A DNA stretch of 41,928 nt from a virus (Duplodnaviria > Heunggongvirae > Uroviricota > Caudoviricetes): the IMG/VR virus record IMGVR_UViG_2648501336_000002; one strand, given 5' to 3'. The position numbers and the translations under genes are program-made. This document shows positions 1 to 38,464 of this stretch, one piece after another; the first letter of the stretch is position 1; the number at the start of each line of letters is the position of its first letter. The notes below the pieces were generated by a model. The model searched no databases and was not told the origin of the DNA. It saw only the letters and a program-made list of their open reading frames with translations.

Positions 1-819
1 ATGCTTGTTAAATTCAGAATAGATCGAAATACAATTACAAATAACAGCACAATTTTAAACGCTAATGACAATCATTTAATTTACTCAAACCTAAATGACA
101 CAGATATAAACTCAAAAATATTTGACGCTGTAAATGGTGAAATATCAGCAAAGAAACTAGCCGACGAACTATTTCCTGAAAACGAACCACACATTTTTAT
201 ATCTCATAGTAGCAAAGACGTAAATGTAGCAATAAGTCTAGCAAACACTCTTTATGCAAAATATAAGATAACATCTTTCATTGACTCCCAACTTTGGGGA
301 CATATTGACCACGCACTAAAGGAAATGCATAATCGATACTGCAAGATCCCCGGCTCATCTTATTACCACTATGATAAATCTAATAACCTACTATCTCATA
401 TGCACGCCATACTAAGTATGGCTTTAATGAGAGTAATGGATAACGCTGACAGCGTTATATTTATCGAATCCGGCAACTCAATTTACCAATATATGGGAGA
501 TACTACCATTGCTCCCCAAGAAGCAATTGAAAAAACATCTGAAACATTATCTCCATGGATATCCTCTGAGGTGAATTTTGCAAATACCTTAAGATTGAAA
601 GGCCATAAAGATAGAGAACAACCATTAATGGAAAGCACAGATTCATACTCTTTAAACAAGAGTAATATTAAAGCAGACTCCTTACCCAAAATAATACATG
701 AAGTCAACTTAAGTAAATTCATAGAGATAGACAACAAAAAATTCAAAGAGTCTTTATCATTAAATGAAACAAATCCAATAAAAACTTTAGATATGATTTA
801 CCAAATATATGCTCAATAG
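1..819 (+). CDS. TIR-like domain protein (bacterial TIR / ThsB-like); accessory gene, 5' end possibly cut by window edge
   Basis: 272-aa ORF, visibly AT-rich; motif HIFISHSSKD resembles the FISH-type beta-A motif of bacterial TIR domains, with conserved Glu candidates downstream (FIESGN, WISSE). No search run. Confidence 0.45.
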   Translation: MLVKFRIDRNTITNNSTILNANDNHLIYSNLNDTDINSKIFDAVNGEISAKKLADELFPENEPHIFISHSSKDVNVAISLANTLYAKYKITSFIDSQLWGHIDHALKEMHNRYCKIPGSSYYHYDKSNNLLSHMHAILSMALMRVMDNADSVIFIESGNSIYQYMGDTTIAPQEAIEKTSETLSPWISSEVNFANTLRLKGHKDREQPLMESTDSYSLNKSNIKADSLPKIIHEVNLSKFIEIDNKKFKESLSLNETNPIKTLDMIYQIYAQ

Positions 820-2622: not shown

Positions 2623-3458
2623 TATGCAGCTCTCACGATATAGTTAAATGCAATATTTCGTGGACGGGTTTCGCTCCCACCTGTGTTACCAATACTCCCT
2701 CGTGTATGTAGCGTTGGTGATGGAATCAGAGTTCCTCCGGCATCGGCAGCATCAAGCCCCCGGCCTTGCGTATATGCTCTTCTGAAGATTGTCGCCAGTT
2801 CCCATTCCTCTTTTGAATCATACCCATCGTTGGCAACAACAATATGGCGGTGTTTTTCCAGCATCCCAGTCTGAATGCTCAATAAAGCACGTCCTGCATC
2901 AATACCACGCCCGTCATCCCATCCACGAATAAACTCACCACGGAGATCAGGTAGTTTCCCTGATGGATATGCTGTAGCAAGATGGGGATATTTCACCTTA
3001 TCAAAGGCAGCGCCGTTGCATTTCAGCCAGCCCGTTGGCGGGGTTGCGGAGGGCCACGGAACAGGCACACCAACAGGTAATGCAGAGCCTTCTCCCAAAC
3101 CAAGGTTTTCGAGAGCCGTTTTCACCGTGCCATCCGATTTGATATCACCAAACGGATTCTTGCGGCTCAGGTATTCAACAGCAAACCCCGATCCCAGCAA
3201 TTCAACAAAACCGGGCAGATCACCATTATCAAGCACATCCCGTTGCGTTTTATCACTTACAAACTGGGCCAGAGCTGCAGCAATAAAGCTGGCCTGCCGA
3301 ATAACCTTATTGACTTGCGCACTGGAGGCTTTCCCTGCTGTAAATCCGGATAAAAGCGCGGGCAACGCTTCCCATTCCTCCTGCGATATAACATTGGCAT
3401 TTCGATCCGTTGCAAACGCTTTAAAGTCATTTTTCGCCATCAGAGTAATACTCCCCAT
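2622..3458 (-). CDS. Tail fibre protein (constant N-terminal part plus variable C-terminus)
   Basis: 278 aa following the baseplate genes; contains the crossover site inside the codons for ALENLGLGE. Confidence 0.65.
3090..3115. repeat. hix/gix-like recombination site (left boundary, inside tail-fibre gene)
   Basis: TTCTCCCAAACCAAGGTTTTCGAGAG, an imperfect dyad with the AAACC-nn-GGTTT core. Confidence 0.55.
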
Positions 3459-4120
3459 GCTCCTACATCAAAACCACTGATGAATTCGTTATCCATATCA
3501 AAACCAAAAAATTTTGAGCCTTCCGATGGGGTTTCCACCGAAGGTGTTTCAATGCCACCCGCCCATACCCCGGCGGCTTTTACTGTGAGATACCCCTGTT
3601 TAATTGCCGCAATTAACTCACGCGATACATCTGAAATATCAGTATCAGGAAAGACCCAGACCGATATCGTCATGTCCTGGTTATCGACTATCTGCATTCG
3701 CAGCCCGGATCCTGCTGTTGCAGCGTCAAGAATTGCCGGAAGCGAATCATTCCGTCCATCCCAGTTATTAATCGCAATCTTCGCTTTAAGAATGACACGA
3801 TAAGTTTCATCGCTGAGGTACATGTATCCGGAATCAGGATCGTATGGTCCCTGCCATACCCCCTGATCATATCCAAGCCCGTCGGTATCCCAGCTGAAAT
3901 AGACACCTGAGATAGGCTGGCTGACAACACGGCTACGTCCGATCCACAATCCCAGAATGTCAAGTTGCACACCAACCGCAGAGTCAATATCAAATGCAGT
4001 AATCAGCCCTCTGGTGGCAGCCGCAACATCAATAAGCGGCCGGGTCATCAGATCAACATGCGCAAGAAATTTAGGTTTGGTGGCGTGGTAGTTCGTGATT
4101 AGTTCGGTGTATTTGCTCAT
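3440..4120 (-). CDS. Baseplate/tail protein (Mu gp48-like)
   Basis: 226 aa between the baseplate J-like gene and the tail fibre; synteny with Mu-type baseplate modules. Confidence 0.45.
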
Positions 4121-5316
4121 GACTCCACCGTTATAACGATATTTTCCGGGGTACAGGACGCAGATTCGTTGTATCTGATATCAATGTTTGATGACGACAA
4201 AACCCCCGGGGATTTCCCAATCGTCAGTTCCTGAATATCGTAATAGCGTGCATTCCCGCCACTCACCACGCCAAGATTCGCCGGTGAGTAAATGCGACTT
4301 AAAAGGACCGAATCACCAATCGTCAGACTATTGATATAGTCGGAAATAGCCTGCTGGATCTGCTGCCCTATCTGTGAGGTATAACCCGTAAAAACTTTTA
4401 ATTTAATCAGGGCATAAACAGGCACATCACTGGAACGCGAGAATTTGATTACATGGGGATTGCCGTATTTATCCGGAACCGTAACGGATGTTGTACCGTG
4501 AGTGGCTGTCCCCTGGCCTTTATTCCCTCTGATAGCCTGAGCAATATCCGTTACATCACCGCCATCCACAATTACAGCAACAGAGTGTGGCGGTAACCCG
4601 TTACCGTCCTCCGAACCAGTATCGTTTTCATAGAGTTTGTGGCGGGTTACACCGGTAACATTAGAAACAGCACCATCCAGTGCTTCAAATGGGGTTATTG
4701 ATGGCAACGCAACACTTTGCGACTGGCGGATACGTAACTCAGCGTCAGTTTCTGCCGGAGTGCCCACAGTAGCCGCAGCAGGATTAGTTACCGAAACCCA
4801 GCCACGGGTTGGCGTATTAATTTCAGTGATAGTTCCAGCCAGCGCCGCCACTGCACCACTGACGGAACATGTTGCGGTCACCATCACTGTACCATCCACG
4901 CCGACCACCACTGAAGCAGGCAAACGCCATATCACATTATTACTGTCTTTCACGCTGCCATTAATGATGGTTGTTCCGGCAGTTCCTGTAAGAAGCAAAT
5001 CAACCGTAGAATTCGTCGCGCCTTTACGTGAAATACCATTTATTTTCACGTTACTGGTCAGTGCGGCTCCATAGCCGGTTGCTGGTGAAAAACAGTTGTA
5101 GACAGTTATCGCCATATTATTGGCATCATGAATCGCCAGCGCCATCAGAGCCACCATCTGGCCGTCTTTGCTGTCCGGTTCGAGGTAGGCATCACTGCCA
5201 TAAATCTGCTGAAAATAGCTAATCAGGGTGCTGAGTATCGTCTGATAATCAGGCGCACTGATCCCCTCTGCGGTTACCTTTGCAGATAAACCGAGAGAAT
5301 CAAGGTTCAGAGCCAT
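4117..5316 (-). CDS. Baseplate J-like protein (Mu gp47-like)
   Basis: 399 aa; size and position in a gp45-gp46-gp47-gp48 order. Confidence 0.6.
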   Translation of the reverse strand: MALNLDSLGLSAKVTAEGISAPDYQTILSTLISYFQQIYGSDAYLEPDSKDGQMVALMALAIHDANNMAITVYNCFSPATGYGAALTSNVKINGISRKGATNSTVDLLLTGTAGTTIINGSVKDSNNVIWRLPASVVVGVDGTVMVTATCSVSGAVAALAGTITEINTPTRGWVSVTNPAAATVGTPAETDAELRIRQSQSVALPSITPFEALDGAVSNVTGVTRHKLYENDTGSEDGNGLPPHSVAVIVDGGDVTDIAQAIRGNKGQGTATHGTTSVTVPDKYGNPHVIKFSRSSDVPVYALIKLKVFTGYTSQIGQQIQQAISDYINSLTIGDSVLLSRIYSPANLGVVSGGNARYYDIQELTIGKSPGVLSSSNIDIRYNESASCTPENIVITVES

Positions 5317-5669
5317 TACGCCTCCGATGTAACAGTCGTTATTCCATAGAGAGTGTCGATTTCAGTGGAAAACCTGACACGTCGGGTCGTGGTATCCACC
5401 GTAGTATTGAAAGAGAGGATTGATTTAACGCCCCGCGTTTCGAGGATGCGCTTACGGATCGCCAGGTTGTAGGTTTCCGGCTTCTGCTTACCGAGTACGG
5501 ACTGGATCCACGGAGTCCCCTCGGTGGTGTCGAGAAACCATTGCCCATACCACAATTCGAATCGCGTTTTTACCGCCTGCGCCACGGCCTCCGGTGAGTT
5601 AATCAGCCAGGTGTCATCACCGCTGCCAAAGGTGTAATCGCCATCGGCGTCTTCACGTCTGTATCGCAT
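5316..5669 (-). CDS. Baseplate protein (Mu gp46 / W-like)
   Basis: 117 aa, translationally coupled to neighbours; synteny. Confidence 0.45.
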   Translation of the reverse strand: MRYRREDADGDYTFGSGDDTWLINSPEAVAQAVKTRFELWYGQWFLDTTEGTPWIQSVLGKQKPETYNLAIRKRILETRGVKSILSFNTTVDTTTRRVRFSTEIDTLYGITTVTSEA

Positions 5670-6442
5670 CAGTTTACCCCATCGGTATTGCTTCCACCGC
5701 GCTGAACACCGCCATGAGTGTGCGTATCATCGATTGGCTTGCCGTTAGCCTTAACGCTCCCCAAGAACTCAACAGCACCAGTGATTTTTGAAGCCACACC
5801 AGAAACAACAGACCCCACCATGCCCCCCATCCAGGTTAACAGGCCATGAATGGTTACTTTCTCAGAAAAATCAGCCAGAGGGGCAACCACATCAAGACCA
5901 CCCGGAGCGACAATTTTAATTTTCCTGGTGTCAGGATTAAGCTCAAAATAGGTGCTGCCGTCGTCACTACGCAACTGTGTGGCACTGGTATTAATACCGC
6001 TAATCTTCCTCGCCTGCGACTGGGGACCGACAATACAAAACGCATCCGATAAATCATGCATTCTGTCATCGACCGGCTCCTGTATCCCGCCACTCTGCCA
6101 CCAGAAATCAATACAACGATCGGCAAAAACGACAAGACACTCATCCCCGGCTTTTACCGGAAAAGTCAACGTACAGCCTCCGCCGCGCGGGAATACCACT
6201 GGTACATCCACCAGCAGCGGGTAATTTTTGGTTACGCGGTTGCCGTCGTTGTCGGTTTCAACCGAACGAATAGCAGGCTGCACAACCGCCGTCACCGCGT
6301 CAGGATCGAATGACTGAACGATGCCAGGCAAAGCGACGCGGATCTGGTTCTTTGTGGTTTCCCGCTCGGATTTGAATGTTTCGGCAAGGTCGCCGCTGCG
6401 GGTCTGGTCAGATACTGCCATTTTGTAGGCTCCAGAAAGCAA
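5669..6442 (-). CDS. Baseplate assembly / spike protein (Mu gp45 / V-like)
   Basis: 257 aa in the track, using a TTG at 6442; a more likely start is ATG at 6421 (MAVSDQT) with a GGAG Shine-Dalgarno upstream. Confidence 0.55.
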   Translation of the reverse strand: MLSGAYKMAVSDQTRSGDLAETFKSERETTKNQIRVALPGIVQSFDPDAVTAVVQPAIRSVETDNDGNRVTKNYPLLVDVPVVFPRGGGCTLTFPVKAGDECLVVFADRCIDFWWQSGGIQEPVDDRMHDLSDAFCIVGPQSQARKISGINTSATQLRSDDGSTYFELNPDTRKIKIVAPGGLDVVAPLADFSEKVTIHGLLTWMGGMVGSVVSGVASKITGAVEFLGSVKANGKPIDDTHTHGGVQRGGSNTDGVN

Positions 6443-6465
6443 AAAACCCGCCGGGTGGCGGGTTT
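6438..6465 (-). terminator. Rho-independent terminator after the accessory cassette
   Basis: Minus strand: AAACCCGCC-ACCC-GGCGGGTTT followed by a T-run; sits between the stop of the 131-aa gene (6483) and the baseplate V-like start. Confidence 0.6.
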
Positions 6466-6482
6466 GATAACGTTAATTTTAT

Positions 6483-6878
6483 TCATGAAGCCCTAGCAGA
6501 CTTTAGCTGTTCCCAGCGCTCAAAATAGAGTTCAGCAGCCTCGATTGCATCCTGTCCCATCTCTTTCGAAACAGTCACATTCGTCAGATCATAGTCAGCT
6601 TCGTTTCTAGCATCCCGCCACTGGCGAAGTACGAAAGCCAGGGATTTCAGTGTATTTGTCGGGTATGGCTCTGATTTGCACTCTGATGGCGTTGACATAT
6701 AACCCACAGTATTTTTGTGATGCTCATGGGTAAAATGCGGTATGGCAGTAAGTGAGCTAATAGACTCATGTAACATACTGTAATACGCCCTTGAAATAGC
6801 GCTTCGAAATCCACTCTCAATATTTTCAGACAGACATAATCGAGCGGTATCGAGAATCTGATTGCTAGTTACCGACAT
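6483..6878 (-). CDS. Small hypothetical protein, possibly HEPN-like helical fold
   Basis: 131 aa, mostly helical; RAYYSMLH and a C-terminal RDARNEADY segment loosely resemble HEPN helices and an Rx4-6H-type motif with Tyr in place of His. Overlaps the upstream gene by 14 nt. Confidence 0.4.
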   Translation of the reverse strand: MSVTSNQILDTARLCLSENIESGFRSAISRAYYSMLHESISSLTAIPHFTHEHHKNTVGYMSTPSECKSEPYPTNTLKSLAFVLRQWRDARNEADYDLTNVTVSKEMGQDAIEAAELYFERWEQLKSARAS

Positions 6879-7638
6879 GGTAGCTCACCCCCGTATGCAA
6901 CTGACGCGGAGAGGTAAATCTAGCTAACAGGGAACAATCATCCAGTTTAGATTCAGCACAGACTCTATCAGCCAAATCGAAATTCATTTTGGCAATAGTT
7001 TTAGGCTCAAGATTTTTAATATCAACAACATAGCAACCGCTTCCACTAAGCTGAACGAAACCTGTCGTAGCCTTGTATTCACTTAGCAAGCCCCAGATTA
7101 TGGATGCTAAGGTCTGAAACTGTTCCTTCGAGCACTGTGTGGCGCTATAAAAATTATCCATTTCTGCAAGGAGTTCTTCTTTGTGCTTCATAGCATTACT
7201 CCTGCCTTCTGATTCAGAAAGAAGCTTAATGTGCTCTTCCATATAAAATTCTAACTGTTCACGCTCACCGCAACGGTACGCCCAACTGTATGCGTTGTGA
7301 CTAAAAAGTTTTGTCCGATACTTCTTTGCCAGCGGGACATAGACATCCTTGAGTTCATTATAGCTAAATGTATTAATTAAAATGTGATGATAGTGCATTG
7401 CCAACGTTACATCGTTTACTTCCAGGCTTATCCTGAGATAACGTAACGCGCTTTCGATCTTTCCGGTTATTGCATCCAGATAAGATAGTGCAATGTTGGT
7501 AGCAGGCGTTGGAGAGACAGAAAGTTCCTCTCGAATTTTCTTTTCAGTGAAGGGATCTAATCTTTCCCTATCCAATAGAAGCGCATTGAATTGTTCAACA
7601 TATTTTTGCGCTTTTTCTAGTGGGATGCCTGCCGCCAT
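6865..7638 (-). CDS. Hypothetical protein, first gene of the accessory two-gene cassette
   Basis: 257 aa, no motif recognised; lower GC than flanking tail genes; preceded by a promoter-like element. Confidence 0.5.
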   Translation of the reverse strand: MAAGIPLEKAQKYVEQFNALLLDRERLDPFTEKKIREELSVSPTPATNIALSYLDAITGKIESALRYLRISLEVNDVTLAMHYHHILINTFSYNELKDVYVPLAKKYRTKLFSHNAYSWAYRCGEREQLEFYMEEHIKLLSESEGRSNAMKHKEELLAEMDNFYSATQCSKEQFQTLASIIWGLLSEYKATTGFVQLSGSGCYVVDIKNLEPKTIAKMNFDLADRVCAESKLDDCSLLARFTSPRQLHTGVSYHVGN

Positions 7639-7667
7639 GGATTATTTCTCTTACTAAAGGGATTGTG

Positions 7668-7696
7668 ATTGTGAACTTTGAACAATATCTCGTCAA
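7668..7696 (-). promoter_or_regulatory. Candidate sigma70 promoter for the two-gene cassette
   Basis: Minus strand: -35 TTGACG (7696..7691), 17-nt spacer, -10 CACAAT (7673..7668), about 30 nt upstream of the ATG at 7638. Confidence 0.25.
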
Positions 7697-7733
7697 CCTT
7701 AAAGCGCTCATCTCGGAAGATTGACATCAAACT

Positions 7734-8081
7734 TTAGCGTAACGCCTTTTTACAAGGGAATGATCCGATGATTCTAGGCGCATCCATGCTGTTCTGCAGA
7801 AGCTGGACGTTCAGAAAAGCTTTTCCGTTACGCTTCACAAACTCAAAGCCGTAATTGTTGCCATCGCGGGAAGGCATCAGGCCCATGTCGGTTTTAACGT
7901 TGTCCCAGTCATCTTTCTGGCCAAGAAACTTAATTTTCTGAGATGTTACCTGTTCGCCGTTGATTTTCGTCCACCCGTTATCAGATGCATGAAGTCGGTA
8001 TCCTCCGCATTGCAAATCAGCGAAAGCCGATGAGCAGGAAAACAGTAACGAAATTGTCAGAACTAACTTCATACGCTTCAT
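7734..8081 (-). CDS. Small secreted protein (signal peptide), moron-like
   Basis: Likely start at 8081 (MKRMKLVLTISLLFSCSSAFA signal peptide); ATGA start/stop overlap with the upstream baseplate hub gene indicates translational coupling. Confidence 0.5.
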   Translation of the reverse strand: MKRMKLVLTISLLFSCSSAFADLQCGGYRLHASDNGWTKINGEQVTSQKIKFLGQKDDWDNVKTDMGLMPSRDGNNYGFEFVKRNGKAFLNVQLLQNSMDAPRIIGSFPCKKALR

Positions 8082-9145
8082 GAATAAAACCTTTGCTGCG
8101 CTGAGGACGAAAGTAAATCCGCCGCACCACGCGCTTCGCACATCATGTCCATGTACCACGCCTGGCCCCTTGTGTCACCAGTGTACATAATCCCGCGCAC
8201 AATATAAACGCCATCCGTTGCGATGCTGGCAGGCTGCGATGTGGTGCCGCTGAGCGTGATATTTCCGTCCGTGTTCTGGTCGGTGATCTGCCCACCGGCC
8301 ATCGCGATATCGTTGCTCGACAGTGCGGTGCGATATACGGAAGCCTGATCAAGCTGAATGAGCCCGTTAACCCGGATGTTCGGATTAATCAGCGCGCGGA
8401 CGTTTACGCCGTTACCGATAGTCTGCTGCGGCATGCCAATAAGCCCGGTAGCGCTGTTGAGCACAATCGCTTCGTGAACATATTCGTTATTCGCCACCAT
8501 CTGGCGCTGACCGTCCACGAATTGCCATGTTGCGCCACATTGCCCGGCTACGTTATCCATAAGATGCCGCGTCATGCCAAAGAGTACCCGCCCCCGGGGG
8601 AATACAGTAGCAGGCATTTCAGGCGTCAGACCTTCAGTCGCGCCTTTGGCCTCGAAGTCTTTCATCAGCGCGCGATTCACGTCTGCGACCGTATAACCGG
8701 CCGCCAGCGTCTGCGAAGTTATGCTGGTGGCAAAAGCCAGATCCGTATCGGCTGCCTGAATCAGAACGTAAGAATCAATGGGGCTGTCTTTTCCTGTTAC
8801 CGAGTAACGAATTTCGCCGCTGAAAATCATCCCATAGTTGCGGCCATCACTCTGGCCCACATCCGCCGCATCGACTTCCCGCACGGTCCCGACGTCGCTG
8901 GCCGATACCTCCGGCGCGATACCGTCGTAACCCGCAATCAGGCGCACTTTCGAAAACTCCTGCCCGGTGATTCGGTTCACAGTATCTGCCGAGAGGTTAT
9001 AAATTTTGATAGTCCCTACCCGGGACGCGCTGCTGATGTTGAACCAGTCGATCGTAAAGGTGACTTTGAAATCACTTAGCTCAATTCCCTGACCGTTCCC
9101 GTCCACAAGCTGCAGCTCGAAATGTCTCATCCAGTTCTGTGACAT
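8078..9145 (-). CDS. Baseplate hub protein (Mu gp44 / P2 D-like)
   Basis: 355 aa; position between the tape-measure region and the baseplate genes. Confidence 0.5.
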   Translation of the reverse strand: MSQNWMRHFELQLVDGNGQGIELSDFKVTFTIDWFNISSASRVGTIKIYNLSADTVNRITGQEFSKVRLIAGYDGIAPEVSASDVGTVREVDAADVGQSDGRNYGMIFSGEIRYSVTGKDSPIDSYVLIQAADTDLAFATSITSQTLAAGYTVADVNRALMKDFEAKGATEGLTPEMPATVFPRGRVLFGMTRHLMDNVAGQCGATWQFVDGQRQMVANNEYVHEAIVLNSATGLIGMPQQTIGNGVNVRALINPNIRVNGLIQLDQASVYRTALSSNDIAMAGGQITDQNTDGNITLSGTTSQPASIATDGVYIVRGIMYTGDTRGQAWYMDMMCEARGAADLLSSSAQQRFYS

Positions 9146-9147
9146 GC

Positions 9148-9450
9148 TTACTCCGTTGATACCAGTAAATGACTGCGACCGCCCAGGTCAGTTTTCGTGG
9201 GATAATCCTGTGTGTTGTCATCGCAGACCACCAACAGCTTAAAACCAAGCCCCATACAGGCGTACTGCGCCAGCAGATCAGCGCCAGTGACGAGAGGAAT
9301 ACCGGAGATTACCGGCTCTCCTCTGTCGTTCTGCAGGTCCATAATCCAGTAAGGATCTCGCCATATGATGCTAATCCGCCAGGTGGCACCACCCAGGACG
9401 ATGCTGAACTGCTGGTTGTCCGCTGTCAGCGGAATTTCCTGAATTGTCAT
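9148..9450 (-). CDS. Tail protein (hypothetical)
   Basis: 100 aa, tightly packed in the tail operon. Confidence 0.35.
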   Translation of the reverse strand: MTIQEIPLTADNQQFSIVLGGATWRISIIWRDPYWIMDLQNDRGEPVISGIPLVTGADLLAQYACMGLGFKLLVVCDDNTQDYPTKTDLGGRSHLLVSTE

Positions 9451-10037
9451 TAGCCGCCCCCCAGTAATGACGCCACGTTACCCGTGATGCTTTTCAGCAG
9501 TGAAGTATCTGGAGGCTTTGTGGTTTTGTTGCCGCTATTCTGTACCGCCGACGTGCTGGCCCCTTCCTTCATGTTGGTTTTATCCGCGACGGTAATCTGC
9601 TGTGTCCGGGAGATAAGGACCTCCCTCAGGGTGAGGACGGCGGACAGGACGTTTTCGGTTGTCTTGTCCGTCGTCACTTCCAGCGCCCGGATCAACATGT
9701 TGCTGTACAGTCGTTTACCGGTTACCACATCGAAGGGGATACGGCTTTCCTGCAGATCCAGTAGCTCCTGATACGTCTGCTGAGGACTCAGGCCGAGCAG
9801 GCTGGTAGCCGTCAGATTACTGGCAAAATCCAGCAATGCGCCGCCACCGGCGAAACCAACCTCCATCACCACTTCTGACGGTTTTTTATAGGCATGATCA
9901 GCGACAGCGGCCCCGACCTCTACCGGATGCTCTGTTATTTCAAGCATATCTGTATGCTTCTCTGAAATAACAACACTGGGAACAATCATTCCTATTTTTC
10001 TGCTCTGCTGATGAAAAAGTGTAGAGAGAATATCCAC
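9450..10037 (-). CDS. Tail protein (hypothetical, possibly Mu gp43-like)
   Basis: 195 aa immediately downstream of the tape measure. Confidence 0.35.
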   Translation of the reverse strand: MDILSTLFHQQSRKIGMIVPSVVISEKHTDMLEITEHPVEVGAAVADHAYKKPSEVVMEVGFAGGGALLDFASNLTATSLLGLSPQQTYQELLDLQESRIPFDVVTGKRLYSNMLIRALEVTTDKTTENVLSAVLTLREVLISRTQQITVADKTNMKEGASTSAVQNSGNKTTKPPDTSLLKSITGNVASLLGGG

Positions 10038-12046
10038 TAACCCACCCTCACCTGATTACTTCGCATGACCTGAGCATTTGCAGACTGTTGCCGACGTGCA
10101 ACCTCATTACCGACAGCGTGCGGATCTCCGCCACCGTAAATGTGGTAAGTATTTTGCTGGTTAACCTCTGTCATTTTGCCACTAATTCCCGCCACGGCAG
10201 CCTTATTAATCAGCTCTCGAGAATAGATATTTCTTCCATTTTCATGCTGGATAATGCTGCTCATCAATGCTGACATGGTTTGCGGATCTCTCATATTCAG
10301 GGCAGCCCGGGGATCCACTCCCAGTCGTTGCGATACAGCCCTGATATACGCAGTTGTGTTGTTATTATCAGACGCAGGTGCCCAGGTAGAGATAATTTTC
10401 TCCACACTGTTTATTCCCCGTCCGGCGTACAGCATTAACTGACGAGCAAGAGCCCGTAATCCATCAAAGGCAGTTTCAAATCTGGCAAATCGCCCGCCCG
10501 GGCGTTCAAGAGAAGCCCCTGCCTGACCAGCAAAATTAAGGTTTCCCGGATTGTTATTCCGTTCTCCTCGTTTCGTAGCCTGTGCATGTTGTTCTGGCTC
10601 ATCATCACCAAACCAGCCGCGTACCGTCCGGCCCACGCTGCGGGGATCGAATCCCCAGTGCTCTTTAATCCAGTCGGCAGTACTGTTAGCGCTGTCTGTA
10701 ACCATCGGCATCGCTGACGGATTTTCGCTGCCCTGATTAAGTATCTGTTTGCCGATGCTGACGGCATCAGCCCAGCGGCCATCTTTGATAGCGTTGAGCA
10801 GGTCGGCGATCATGTTCAGCATTTTGCTGAATTCGCCCATCTGGTCGATGAATTTGCTGAAATCCCACTTCAGGGACCATGATTTGAGGTCAATATTGAG
10901 CAGTTTCGCCAGCGCTTTCACCAGGTCGTTAACGGTTGTTTTAAGGTCACGAACCATCTTCAGCGCGGCATCGACCTCCGGTTTCCACTTGCCCCAGTCA
11001 ATCAGGCTGTCGCCGCCTTCCTTCCAGGTCTGATAGTCCTCCCACAGGAGGGCAATCCCCGCCGCCAGCGCGGTAATGAGGCCAATCGGCGACATCCAGA
11101 ACGTACTGTTCAGAATGCGCAGCGCAATCGTCAGTGCGCCAAACAGCGAGATCAACTCCCGCGTTTGCTTATCCAGCGATTGCCACCAGGTGATAAGGCC
11201 TGATGTCCCCTCAATCAGTCTGAAGAACAGCCGCCCGATTATATCCCCGAGCGCCAGAATGCCTTTTATGGCTTTCGTCAGAGTCTGCTCGATGCGCGGG
11301 AAGTTGTCCAGGATATGGCGGCGCAGGGTGTCCAGCGACCCCGCAAGTCCACCCGCAAGATTAGAGCCGATTTTGTCACGGGCCATGCCTGCCATCGCGC
11401 TAAACTCACGCAGGGAGGTCATAAATTTGTTGGAGCTTCTGGCCGCCTCGTCAGCATTGAAGCCGATCGCTTTCACCATTTCTGAATACTGAGCGCTGAA
11501 CTGCCCCACTCCGCGACGCATAGCCATCAGGGTATTTTCGTCAATGCCCAGCATCTGCGCATACTGGTTAGCCCGGTAATACGGCATGCTGCTGAGTTTC
11601 TGTCCAACGCCCGTAAAGATAGCGGCCATGTCACGCATGTTACCGCTGGCATCACGGGTCTGTACGCCCAGGCGATTCAGAAAGCCTTCTGCACCGGGAT
11701 TGTTACGAATAAACCGGGAGAGGCTTTCCAGAGAAGATCGCGCAGCGTCCACGCTGCCGCCAACCTGCGAAACCGCATAGCCAATAGACTGAATTCCCTG
11801 GACTGTCGCGCCGGTGCGCTGTGACGCCCAGTAAAGATTATCCAGGCCGGAGGCGATCTTAGCCGTGAAGGCCACCACGGACAGCGCAGCTCCTTCAACA
11901 GCCAGCCCCATTTTGATGACATTTGCAGTTGTACCGGCGAGGACAGAACCGAACTTTTTCGCTCCTGCATCATCCACACTGAAGCCAAGCGAGACGAGGA
12001 AATCTTTAATAGTTTCAGCGTTCATTATCCTCTCTCCATTTCTCAA
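10037..12046 (-). CDS. Tail tape measure protein
   Basis: 669 aa, helical and Ala/Gly-rich with hydrophobic central segments. The track start at 12046 is a TTG; an ATG at 12025 (MNAETIK) is more likely. Confidence 0.7.
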   Translation of the reverse strand: MRNGERIMNAETIKDFLVSLGFSVDDAGAKKFGSVLAGTTANVIKMGLAVEGAALSVVAFTAKIASGLDNLYWASQRTGATVQGIQSIGYAVSQVGGSVDAARSSLESLSRFIRNNPGAEGFLNRLGVQTRDASGNMRDMAAIFTGVGQKLSSMPYYRANQYAQMLGIDENTLMAMRRGVGQFSAQYSEMVKAIGFNADEAARSSNKFMTSLREFSAMAGMARDKIGSNLAGGLAGSLDTLRRHILDNFPRIEQTLTKAIKGILALGDIIGRLFFRLIEGTSGLITWWQSLDKQTRELISLFGALTIALRILNSTFWMSPIGLITALAAGIALLWEDYQTWKEGGDSLIDWGKWKPEVDAALKMVRDLKTTVNDLVKALAKLLNIDLKSWSLKWDFSKFIDQMGEFSKMLNMIADLLNAIKDGRWADAVSIGKQILNQGSENPSAMPMVTDSANSTADWIKEHWGFDPRSVGRTVRGWFGDDEPEQHAQATKRGERNNNPGNLNFAGQAGASLERPGGRFARFETAFDGLRALARQLMLYAGRGINSVEKIISTWAPASDNNNTTAYIRAVSQRLGVDPRAALNMRDPQTMSALMSSIIQHENGRNIYSRELINKAAVAGISGKMTEVNQQNTYHIYGGGDPHAVGNEVARRQQSANAQVMRSNQVRVG

Positions 12047-33203: not shown

Positions 33204-33833
33204 TCACTCAGGAATCTTAATCTTCCTCAATTCTTTATTTAGTTCACAGATCTTCTTCTTAGACGGGAAAGTATCATACATCCAAAAACCAACAGTCTCT
33301 AAAACTATTGTCATAACCATATACACAAGATAATTTAAAAGGCCTTCATTTTGCCCTATGGAAATAATGCAGATAATAGAAAAAAGGATAAACAGCACAA
33401 AACACAGAAAGGAAAACAGACGACTAATAATAAATAAAAAACCTGAAAAATTAACATTGATGAAAAACACTCCGTTATCTTTCTCTATATAATTCTGAAG
33501 CTTAATCACCTGATTTATATACTGTCTTTTTTCTAATCTATTGCAAATGTAAATAACATCACTTCGGTTATAAGAAGATTGCAATTTCAGCGCATCACGA
33601 ATAATTTTATCATTTATTCTTTTTTCTATGGCACTCTTATCCTCCTTATCCAGATAACGTTCATACTTAACTAAATATAAAATTAACTTCTTGACATATT
33701 TAGGCTCTTTATACTTATAATTAAAAATGATCTTTCTTATCCAGACTCCCATAACAATCAAACATGAAAAAATATATCCAGCTATTTTCTCCAGATGCTC
33801 TGTATGGTCAATCAAGTATTGGATCATATGCAT
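33204..33833 (-). CDS. AT-rich membrane protein (about 3 TM), antisense moron; candidate exclusion / abortive-infection protein
   Basis: 209 aa, strongly AT-rich, Lys/Ile/Tyr-rich; hydrophobic segments near the N-terminus and at about residues 125-170; opposite strand to the flanking replication genes. Confidence 0.5.
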   Translation of the reverse strand: MHMIQYLIDHTEHLEKIAGYIFSCLIVMGVWIRKIIFNYKYKEPKYVKKLILYLVKYERYLDKEDKSAIEKRINDKIIRDALKLQSSYNRSDVIYICNRLEKRQYINQVIKLQNYIEKDNGVFFINVNFSGFLFIISRLFSFLCFVLFILFSIICIISIGQNEGLLNYLVYMVMTIVLETVGFWMYDTFPSKKKICELNKELRKIKIPE

Positions 33834-33879
33834 AATTAATCTTTTAATCAGTTAATAGAATAAAAACCAAGGTAAACAC

Positions 33880-36723: not shown

Positions 36724-37293
36724 TTAGTCAATGCCTTTTTGATTGAACTTCTGATTCTCCAGTATGCTTTGCAGCTCAATATTATCATTTGCAGCGGTTT
36801 GTTTATGCTCATGATATTTTTCTTGCGTATAATTTCTTTCTCTTAGTTTCTGTGCGTAATTATTAGAAATAATATCATGACGATCTTGTAATACTTGTTC
36901 AAGTTGACTTTTAAAGTCCTCTATCTTTTCATTAGAAATAACATTTTTGTACTTTTCAATATCACGGCGAAGTTCTTTTTCTTTCTTCTTATTAATGCTT
37001 AATAACTGTCGATTAACGCTACCTAAGGACCATTTAAACCCAATCGACTTTATCCAATGCGCCAGAAACATAGCGCAACTGGGAAGCATTAATAAAAGAA
37101 ATGGCTTTATTGTATTTAAATCAGAACCAATATACGGAAAACGACCGTCCCACGAGGACACCAGTAATGTTAAAAAACCAGTGATGCCACCAGCAGCAAC
37201 ATTAGAAATCAGAGGGACTTTTTCGTAGCTATCAGGTTTAGAAGCGCTACTCAAACGTCCCTCCTTTGACTGATCTTCCAGCACGAATGGCAT
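36724..37293 (-). CDS. Membrane protein with charged coiled-coil C-terminus (third gene of the antisense cassette)
   Basis: 189 aa, AT-rich; two hydrophobic helices (about residues 30-48 and 63-85) then a Lys/Glu-rich helical tail. Confidence 0.45.
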   Translation of the reverse strand: MPFVLEDQSKEGRLSSASKPDSYEKVPLISNVAAGGITGFLTLLVSSWDGRFPYIGSDLNTIKPFLLLMLPSCAMFLAHWIKSIGFKWSLGSVNRQLLSINKKKEKELRRDIEKYKNVISNEKIEDFKSQLEQVLQDRHDIISNNYAQKLRERNYTQEKYHEHKQTAANDNIELQSILENQKFNQKGID

Positions 37294-37495
37294 TCATTGC
37301 AATTTTGTAAAATTCATCATCAGAAGAGACATCAACGACATCGCGACGGACAACTCCTTCTGAGTCAACACATTCAAGAACAAGATGATGTTTAGGCATA
37401 AGCGCAAAGCGTAACCGGTCAAACCCCATCTTAAGAACCCAATATAGTACGGGAAGCAGGCTAAAAAAAGCCAGCCAAAAAGCAAAAGCAATCAT
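37247..37495 (-). CDS. Small membrane protein (second gene of the antisense cassette)
   Basis: 82 aa; N-terminal TM helix IAFAFWLAFFSLLPVLYWVL; overlaps the downstream gene by 47 nt. Confidence 0.4.
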   Translation of the reverse strand: MIAFAFWLAFFSLLPVLYWVLKMGFDRLRFALMPKHHLVLECVDSEGVVRRDVVDVSSDDEFYKIAMNAIRAGRSVKGGTFE

Positions 37496-37518
37496 AGCCC
37501 CCTCCCCATGTGAATCTA

Positions 37519-38397
37519 CTATAAGATGCCGTGTACTTTAACAACTATGTACGTTTTGTCCAGCGAATTCAAGTTCTCACGGACGAGCAAATCAACGCAG
37601 TAAGCATCACTAAAAACACCAGGTTCTCTTCCCGTACTAACACGTTGTAAGAACTCAGTATCTTCTATAGACACGCTGATTGTGTCATCGCCATAGTTGA
37701 CTCGCCAGCCTGTGTTTTTATCCTTATGAATAGTCAAAAATGTGATTAGAGCCTCTTCAATCACCCTTTCAGACAAGGACTGCACTACAGGAACGCGCCT
37801 ATATCTGAACGGTTCAATATTATCTTCGTGCACCTTAATCAGCTCAACCCCCTGTTGAGTTGAAATTTTAAGCGATTCGTATCCTTCCTTTTGCAAAGGA
37901 TTATGAATTAACTTCGATAAGGATTTGCGTATGCTTGGTGAGGCAAGTAAAGGCCGGAAATATGACGGGGCTATAATTTCCTCACCATCATCCATAACTA
38001 TTTTACAGTCTCCTTCCGCTGTTAAAGTCAACCGTTTTATTTGCCTACCATTGATCTGACGAATTAAGTCAATGAGAGTATTTCCTGCTGCGAGTGCAGT
38101 TGTACCTCCAAGCCCAATAATGCTTAATATATTCAAATGGTCAAGTGGATTTTGAATAACATCAATCAAATACTCAAATGAGCCTTCCTTAAAAGGCTCA
38201 ACCTCAACATTAATACACTCACTAGTGCCATTGACAACCAAATTAACTTCTTTAAGCAAGTTGTTTAGTCCATTCAATGACTCAGTTAAAACATCCAAAT
38301 CTATTTTATGATCTGCTAGTGCGGGACCATCATATTTAACAACTAATTTATCAGTAATATTTTCTTCTTGCTGGACATCTGTATAAGCTGAGGTCAT
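37519..38397 (-). CDS. Hypothetical soluble protein (first gene of the antisense cassette)
   Basis: 292 aa, AT-rich, no recognisable catalytic motif; AAGGAA Shine-Dalgarno 7 nt upstream of the ATG at 38397. Confidence 0.5.
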   Translation of the reverse strand: MTSAYTDVQQEENITDKLVVKYDGPALADHKIDLDVLTESLNGLNNLLKEVNLVVNGTSECINVEVEPFKEGSFEYLIDVIQNPLDHLNILSIIGLGGTTALAAGNTLIDLIRQINGRQIKRLTLTAEGDCKIVMDDGEEIIAPSYFRPLLASPSIRKSLSKLIHNPLQKEGYESLKISTQQGVELIKVHEDNIEPFRYRRVPVVQSLSERVIEEALITFLTIHKDKNTGWRVNYGDDTISVSIEDTEFLQRVSTGREPGVFSDAYCVDLLVRENLNSLDKTYIVVKVHGIL

Positions 38398-38464
38398 AAC
38401 TGTTCCTTTCGAAATAAATAATTAAGCTATTACTACATAAGTTCATTCATGGAGATACAATACC

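Follow-up and report, generated by a model that had tools for sequence, protein, structure and literature searches.

The cassette and its boundaries

The stretch analysed here (the window; 41,928 nt of viral DNA, IMG/VR virus record IMGVR_UViG_2648501336_000002) carries, between the baseplate hub and spike genes of a phage tail module, two overlapping open reading frames (ORFs) that form a candidate phage-borne defence cassette. The upstream ORF encodes a protein of 257 amino acids (aa), hereafter the partner, and the downstream ORF encodes a 131-aa protein with a HEPN fold (Table 1). A preliminary description of the window had proposed that these genes, with their 14-nt overlap, constitute a self-contained insert of lower G+C content (GC) than the tail genes. 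Both ORFs were found at the positions it gave, and the difference in GC was evident, with a value of 0.421 across the segment 6469-7746 compared to 0.503 at 3000-6468 and 0.54 at 8082-12000 (i.e., 0.50-0.54 in the flanks).

Table 1. Features of the two-gene cassette and of the genes that bound it (window coordinates).
Feature	Position	Strand	Basis and remarks
Partner gene, 257 aa	6865..7638	-	ORF list; TPR-like solenoid, small alpha/beta domain and C-terminal tail
HEPN-fold gene, 131 aa	6483..6878	-	HEPN-T / UPF0332 branch; 14-nt overlap with partner gene
Variable (inserted) segment	6469..7746	-	Homology loss relative to related phages (blastn); GC 0.421
Sigma-70-type promoter, predicted	7668..7696	-	TTGACG-17-CACAAT; consensus scan 9/12
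Intrinsic terminator	6434..6465	-	Stem 6465..6444, T-tract to 6434; ~13 nt before spike start codon (6421)
R91-N-E-A-D95-Y96 codons	6591..6608	-	Variant of the HEPN Rx4-6H motif
Spike gene, right boundary, outside cassette	5669..6421	-	PF18352 N-terminal domain and GpV apex motif; Pfam E 1.6e-44
115-aa protein gene, left boundary, outside cassette	7734..8081	-	phrog_3443; adjoins hub gene

The rho-independent terminator that had been proposed at the 3′ end of the pair was recovered as a G+C-rich hairpin with a T-tract. Its 9-bp stem (6 G-C pairs) and 4-nt loop are followed by TTTGCTTTCT, the folding energy is -17.9 kcal/mol (z = -2.6), and the spacing to the spike ATG is ~17-22 nt. The promoter-like element was a more qualified case. 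Taken alone, a score of 9/12 is at chance level, as 4 such sites were found in a regional scan where 4.2 were expected, but the -35 sequence TTGAC(G/T), the 17-nt spacer and the A/A/T of the -10 are conserved columns upstream of seven cassette copies (two of them in Klebsiella siphovirus contexts) whose upstream regions have otherwise diverged. The cassette promoter was accepted because of this conservation; the -10 sequence in relatives is usually TAGAAT or TAAAAT.

Promoter and terminator accompany the pair, and the terminator is kept 3′ of it in both myovirus and siphovirus contexts. However, the terminator also stands 3′ of other cargo in the related phages 689R2 (vB_EcoM-689R2) and SEN34 and thus belongs to the slot as much as to the cassette, which tempers the earlier view that the two genes are framed by elements of their own. 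In SEN34-like phages, an intrinsic terminator was observed ~20 nt before the spike start codon whatever the cargo, and late tail-gene expression would therefore depend on terminator read-through. Judged by its layout, the segment is a moron, i.e., a predicted promoter, two genes and a terminator dropped into a cargo slot.

The tail module of the window is SEN34-like (Brunovirus-like), with the gene order tape-measure/SLT, Dit-like, plug, hub (8078-9145), 115-aa protein, cassette, spike, sheath initiator and baseplate J. Blastn homology to related phages breaks and resumes at 6468/7747 in 689R2, 6464/7747 in SEN34 and 6421/7747 in Yersinia phage YP3, a comparison that sets the boundaries of the insert at 6469-7746 and upholds the proposal of a moron between baseplate genes. 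The flanking genes of these three phages share 81-95% DNA identity with those of the window, and the pair is absent from all three; conservation of both proteins as virion components in all related tails, which the preliminary description had named as the finding that would speak against an insert, was thus not observed.

The slot holds different cargo in each relative: an unrelated 170-aa protein (phrog_19013) in 689R2 (locus L001, 2383-2895), a 138-aa protein with a hydrophobic N-terminal segment in SEN34 and, in YP3 (locus L002, 2450-3250), a lone 266-aa distant homologue of the partner with weak TPR matches and no HEPN gene, which may be an orphan antidote. The 170-aa protein of 689R2 contains the string RNNLFHGG, which resembles an Rx4H motif, and might be a different HEPN protein in the same slot; this is a motif-only lead, and searches of Pfam, PDB and PADLOC gave no support for a HEPN fold. 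At least 80% of the query 6438-8090 was present in 27 of the 122 complete E. coli genomes that matched any part of it. Overall, the closest phages lack the pair and have other cargo in the slot, and other phage types carry it at other positions; the evidence thus supports the two genes as an accessory insert and not conserved virion parts.

Both bounding genes lie outside this insert. The spike gene, which starts with an ATG at 6421, is a membrane-puncturing spike protein in the RefSeq annotation. The 115-aa protein has a signal-peptide- or lipobox-like N-terminus (MKRMKLVLTISLLFSC...), and its gene overlaps the hub stop codon by 4 nt. Despite its low GC, this gene is core and not cargo: homologues that are 57-68% identical occupy the same place in 689R2, YP3 and SEN34, and since it is conserved in all SEN34-like phages examined, it was not counted as part of the insert.

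Pairing, mobility and spread of the two genes

The HEPN gene and the partner gene are an obligate, mobile unit. Among IMG/VR loci, a partner homologue ends at the HEPN start in 63 of the 65 that were testable, while the hub/spike slot accounts for 50 of 69 loci and other positions for the remaining 19. In every lineage examined, an ORF of 243-262 aa ends at the HEPN start, at an identity of the HEPN protein to that of the window of 25-70% (global alignment), and gene junctions in 10 other lineages range from -20 to +26 nt. All ORFs in the partner position match the partner profile; for the most distant one the match is weak (E 2e-4, from a search of 12 sequences). Divergence of the two proteins runs in parallel, with a Pearson r of 0.92 between their pairwise identities, and each comparison with the window pair shows the partner to be more diverged than the HEPN protein. 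Two tightly coupled genes inherited as a unit correspond to the layout of type II-like toxin/antitoxin or abortive-infection systems.

All occurrences of the pair among the loci examined were in phage accessory slots, and these are of several kinds. Together with its promoter and terminator, it also occurs in Klebsiella siphoviruses, where the tail chaperone and tape-measure genes flank it. Diverged pairs were found between Q and the lysis genes on the opposite strand, in other siphovirus and lambda-like tail regions, beside an integrase, and, in a Vibrio P2-like element, in the interval from the portal/late-control genes to replication gene A. In P2 itself, this interval holds tin and old. 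P2-like phages are reported to carry hotspots that contain anti-phage systems (Rousset et al. 2022; PMC9122126).

The hosts of prophages with the pair were E. coli, Salmonella, Klebsiella, Enterobacter, Yersinia, Rahnella, Aeromonas and Vibrio. The exact window proteins were recorded on 414 and 413 contigs. The P0077-type variant of the pair was rare in complete E. coli genomes (2 of 5426), and a near-identical member of the P0077 protein cluster was found on at least 1000 Salmonella contigs.

The HEPN-fold protein and its partner

The 131-aa protein belongs to phrog_5176 and, by itself, gave no Pfam match at E ≤ 1 and no NCBIfam or PADLOC match. Its family profile matched PDB 9xbd, a 'HEPN domain-containing protein', at E 2e-6 and AF0298/UPF0332 (PDB 2hsb) at E 1.7e-3, and 27 of 61 aligned family members matched PF05168, including a relative with the same gene architecture (locus L025; 28.6 bits relative to a cut-off of 22 bits). 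The AF2 model was very confident (pLDDT 96.3) and revealed an all-alpha bundle of four or five helices that is superimposable on solved HEPN domains. An exhaustive profile search with the family returned 1487 cluster representatives at E ≤ 1e-3, 97 of them at E ≤ 1e-10. The profile matches and the helix-bundle fold support the assignment of the 131-aa protein as a HEPN-fold protein, which had been suggested on the basis of its helices and a C-terminal RNEADY segment.

That segment was located at residues 91-96 and, as the preliminary description had remarked, departs from the canonical Rx4-6H motif of HEPN domains: the sequence is R91-N-E-A-D95-Y96, with Tyr in the His position in 61 of 61 sequences. 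Eight residues (R25, Y32, Y33, H37, H54, R91, D95 and Y96) are invariant across these sequences, whose identity falls as low as 25%. These polar or aromatic positions point to a conserved active or ligand site, and, to judge from helix order alone, H37, H54 and R91-Y96 would lie at the same end of the bundle. To our knowledge, no activity has been demonstrated for the PF05168/UPF0332 branch in which Asp/Tyr replaces the catalytic His. The closest solved relative, PDB 9xbd, was seen to have the same motif (RNxxDYDL) and 9xbc to have Phe for that Tyr, so that the residue appears to be under study; no paper on 9xbd/9xbc was found in the literature searched. In HEPN-T (PF05168), according to Anantharaman et al. 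(2013), D replaces H in several cases and a conserved His elsewhere could contribute to activity, and the combination of RNEADY with invariant H37 and H54 fits this subset.

For the 257-aa partner, no Pfam, NCBIfam or PADLOC match was obtained, and its sole family match was phrog_17809 (function unknown). The AF2 model (pLDDT 91.6) consisted of ten helices followed by a beta-beta-alpha-beta unit and a tail, which we interpret as a TPR-like solenoid (residues ~6-186), a small alpha/beta domain (~190-241) and a segment of predicted disorder (246-257; pLDDT < 50). Residues 2-100 are the most variable part of the protein, with an entropy of 1.5-1.6 bits compared to 1.0-1.2 elsewhere. The tail is predicted to be disordered, yet it is conserved like the folded C-terminal domain, a pattern typical of segments that become ordered on binding another protein, and it may be one of these. 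A degenerate minimal nucleotidyltransferase (MNT) was considered for this protein and rejected, as it has no GSx10DxD motif, no DxD, only one conserved Asp (D205 in 'YVVDI') and no nucleotidyltransferase (NTase) Pfam match; no gene listed in any locus inspected had such a match either. A seemingly truncated partner in metagenomic locus L027, in which the C-terminal domain might have sufficed for neutralisation, was a gene-calling artefact, the ORF being full length with a non-ATG start.

Proposed function and relation to known systems

The segment 6438-8090 is 100% identical to the chromosome of E. coli KOr019, and when the 41,928-bp interval was projected onto this match, it corresponded to an annotated complete prophage between yfhL and yfhH, with an integrase, a replication module, antiterminator Q, lysis genes, head genes and a myovirus tail. 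Late genes, including the cassette region, are all on the minus strand of the window, and Q lies upstream of the late operon.

In this setting, we consider that there is an even chance that the pair is a lysogen-expressed, toxin/antitoxin-like anti-phage defence module and not a part of the tail. The two genes would be translationally coupled within an autonomous transcription unit. The 131-aa HEPN-T protein, the predicted effector, would most likely be a dimeric RNA-cleaving or RNA-binding toxin in which R91/D95/Y96, with the invariant His37/His54, take over from the canonical Rx4-6H. The 257-aa protein may be a dedicated regulator that holds the HEPN protein inactive via its conserved C-terminal domain and tail, and its variable TPR-like N-terminal half could sense the trigger, for which a protein from a superinfecting phage is the probable candidate. 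Transcription in the lysogen would start at the cassette's own promoter and stop at the terminator, which would insulate the unit from the baseplate genes, whereas in lytic growth, late transcription antiterminated by Q would continue into the spike gene, as suggested by the presence of a Q gene and by established lambdoid biology. Abortive infection or growth arrest would be expected to follow and to protect the lysogen population.

Several observations weigh against a defence module of this kind. The cassette runs in the same direction as the late operon, so that late lytic expression and a role in the lytic cycle are possible, and the -10 of the window copy is weak (CACAAT). The 131-aa protein is missing the canonical catalytic His, HEPN-T domains can be non-catalytic nucleotide or RNA binders (e.g., sacsin and nucleotidyltransferase C-terminal domains), and the 'effector' role of this protein is an assumption. 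PADLOC-DB 2.0.0 (2023) contained no system match for the window proteins or for four diverged pairs, the sole PADLOC match among the pairs tested being a 30-residue partial match of the Vibrio HEPN protein to 'HEPN_IX' (E 1e-4). The accessions of the window were not found in the DefensePredictor supplement within the part of its texts covered, and no description of the pair was found in the HEPN and prophage defence literature searched.

Orientation within a Q-dependent late operon, in which the cassette is embedded, would also suit cargo that serves the phage itself, expressed mainly by late read-through and acting in lytic growth for counter-defence or host takeover, rather than for lysogen immunity, such as a non-catalytic RNA- or nucleotide-binding HEPN protein or an inhibitor of a host system. 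The absence of the canonical His and the existence of binding-only domains within HEPN-T would be in keeping with such a role, as would the solo partner of YP3, which fits an 'orphan antidote' against resident HEPN modules. We nonetheless regard this explanation as unlikely, given that a promoter and terminator travel with the pair, that lambdoid, integrase-adjacent and P2-like pairs face away from neighbouring phage genes or occupy cargo sites expressed in lysogeny, and that eight invariant polar/aromatic residues argue for chemistry and not passive binding alone.

An addiction pair that stabilises the prophage by post-segregational killing, with no role against other phages, would share the classic type II layout of an upstream regulator and a downstream small toxin-like protein in overlapping frames, and HEPN toxins are known from HepT/MntA and RnlA/RnlB. 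However, the pair occurs only in phage accessory slots that include known defence hotspots, the cargo of the slot turns over among close relatives in a manner typical of arms-race cargo, and a 257-aa partner with a repeat domain is far larger than a simple labile antitoxin, all of which makes addiction alone distinctly improbable. A structural or assembly role as tail/baseplate accessory proteins has in its favour only the location between the hub and spike genes; it is effectively refuted by the absence of the pair from 689R2, YP3 and SEN34 despite their closely related flanking genes, by its presence in siphoviruses, lambdoid lysis regions, integrase-adjacent sites and a P2-like element, and by the HEPN fold.

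HEPN domains are recurrent effectors of bacterial immunity, and the anti-phage defence reading would describe a two-gene HEPN conflict system that is new in its partner and its non-canonical motif, its families being known only as PHROGs of unknown function. The cassette offers a clean setting for the His-less branch, as it is 1.3 kb in size, contains two genes from promoter to terminator, is strictly paired and is mobile between phage types. A broader proposal, which we advance tentatively and hold to be possible though on the lower side of even, is that the pair (phrog_17809 and phrog_5176) represents a new and widespread phage-borne immune system in which a fast-evolving TPR-like sensor/antidote controls a minimal HEPN-T nuclease whose canonical Rx4-6H site has given way to R-x3-D-Y plus a distal His; no earlier functional assignment would then precede this one for His-less UPF0332 proteins outside MNT pairs, and the proposal would place a cargo hotspot in the SEN34-like baseplate operon. 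If lysogens prove to be protected, the known defence families would gain a new member, the cassette would define a non-canonical HEPN active site, and the hub/spike junction of SEN34-like prophages would become minable as a cargo hotspot like those of P2/P4. If the pair is inert or serves the phage, it would be one more moron of unknown function.

The same prophage also encodes other defence-like cargo, namely a ThsB-like TIR protein and PDC-S42. The first is a 272-aa protein encoded at 1-819 (+), in a stretch with a GC of 0.33 past the tail-fibre genes, that matches models of Thoeris ThsB (TIR-like; PADLOC E 7.7e-43). Beyond the window, the ThsB-like gene is followed by two small hypothetical genes and then host yfhH, and no gene of the size of ThsA was seen. 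Three hypothetical genes at 36727-38400 (-), with a GC of 0.35-0.42, are flanked by the replication module on one side and by an SNF2/DEAD helicase plus integrase on the other, and the 292-aa product of one of them (37522-38400) matches the PADLOC candidate system PDC-S42 (E 6e-40). A 209-aa hypothetical gene at 33207-33836 (-), on the strand opposite to its neighbours (DNA polymerase and DUF2815), has a GC of 0.34-0.39 and no Pfam or PADLOC match, and looks like another moron.

The closest known counterparts of the 131-aa protein include the HEPN-T/PF05168 (UPF0332) proteins AF0298 (PDB 2hsb), TT1696, ST0689 and PDB 9xbd. According to Table 1 of Anantharaman et al. (2013), this branch is nucleotidyltransferase-associated and its members occur alone or as fusions to MNT, whereas the invariable neighbour in the cassette is a 245-280-aa TPR-like protein without an NTase motif and the genes are phage-borne. 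Type VII HepT/MntA systems combine a DUF86 HEPN protein with an MNT; HepT, which has the motif R-phi-xxxH-x-Y, is neutralised when MntA (GSx10DxD) oligo-AMPylates the Tyr of this motif (PMC13000451). In contrast, the cassette HEPN protein has Tyr at the His position and Leu98, rather than an acceptor Tyr as in RxxxxHxY, two residues after Y96, while its partner has no NTase signature or Pfam match and no adjacent MNT with a GSx10DxD motif was found.

RnlA/RnlB and LsoA/LsoB, which have anti-T4 activity, resemble the cassette in pairing a HEPN toxin with a dedicated non-MNT antitoxin, but RnlA and LsoA, at ~350 aa, have several domains and canonical motifs, and their small antitoxin is encoded downstream, whereas the cassette has a minimal single-domain HEPN protein with a large partner upstream. 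HepS, from the Salmonella prophage Gifsy-1, is a single-protein HEPN abortive-infection system that both senses and cleaves (PMC13043305); in the cassette, sensing and effector roles would fall to separate proteins, and the motif is non-canonical. The E. coli HEPN modules DS-28 (a 163-aa HEPN nuclease and a 252-aa protein) and DS-29 were validated as defensive in the DefensePredictor work, and DS-28 is likewise a two-gene unit with proteins of similar sizes, although its gene order is reversed and its motif is canonical (RNSVAH). Identity of the cassette with DS-28 or DS-29 was rejected, as there was no detectable sequence relationship (BLAST E > 0.1; profile E > 0.1). With lambdoid morons, the cassette shares a promoter and terminator of its own, a deviant GC and a variable presence between genes that adjoin each other in relatives, and no anatomical difference from them was apparent. 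By analogy, HepS, RnlAB/LsoAB and HepT/MntA may serve as precedents for a defence function of the cassette.

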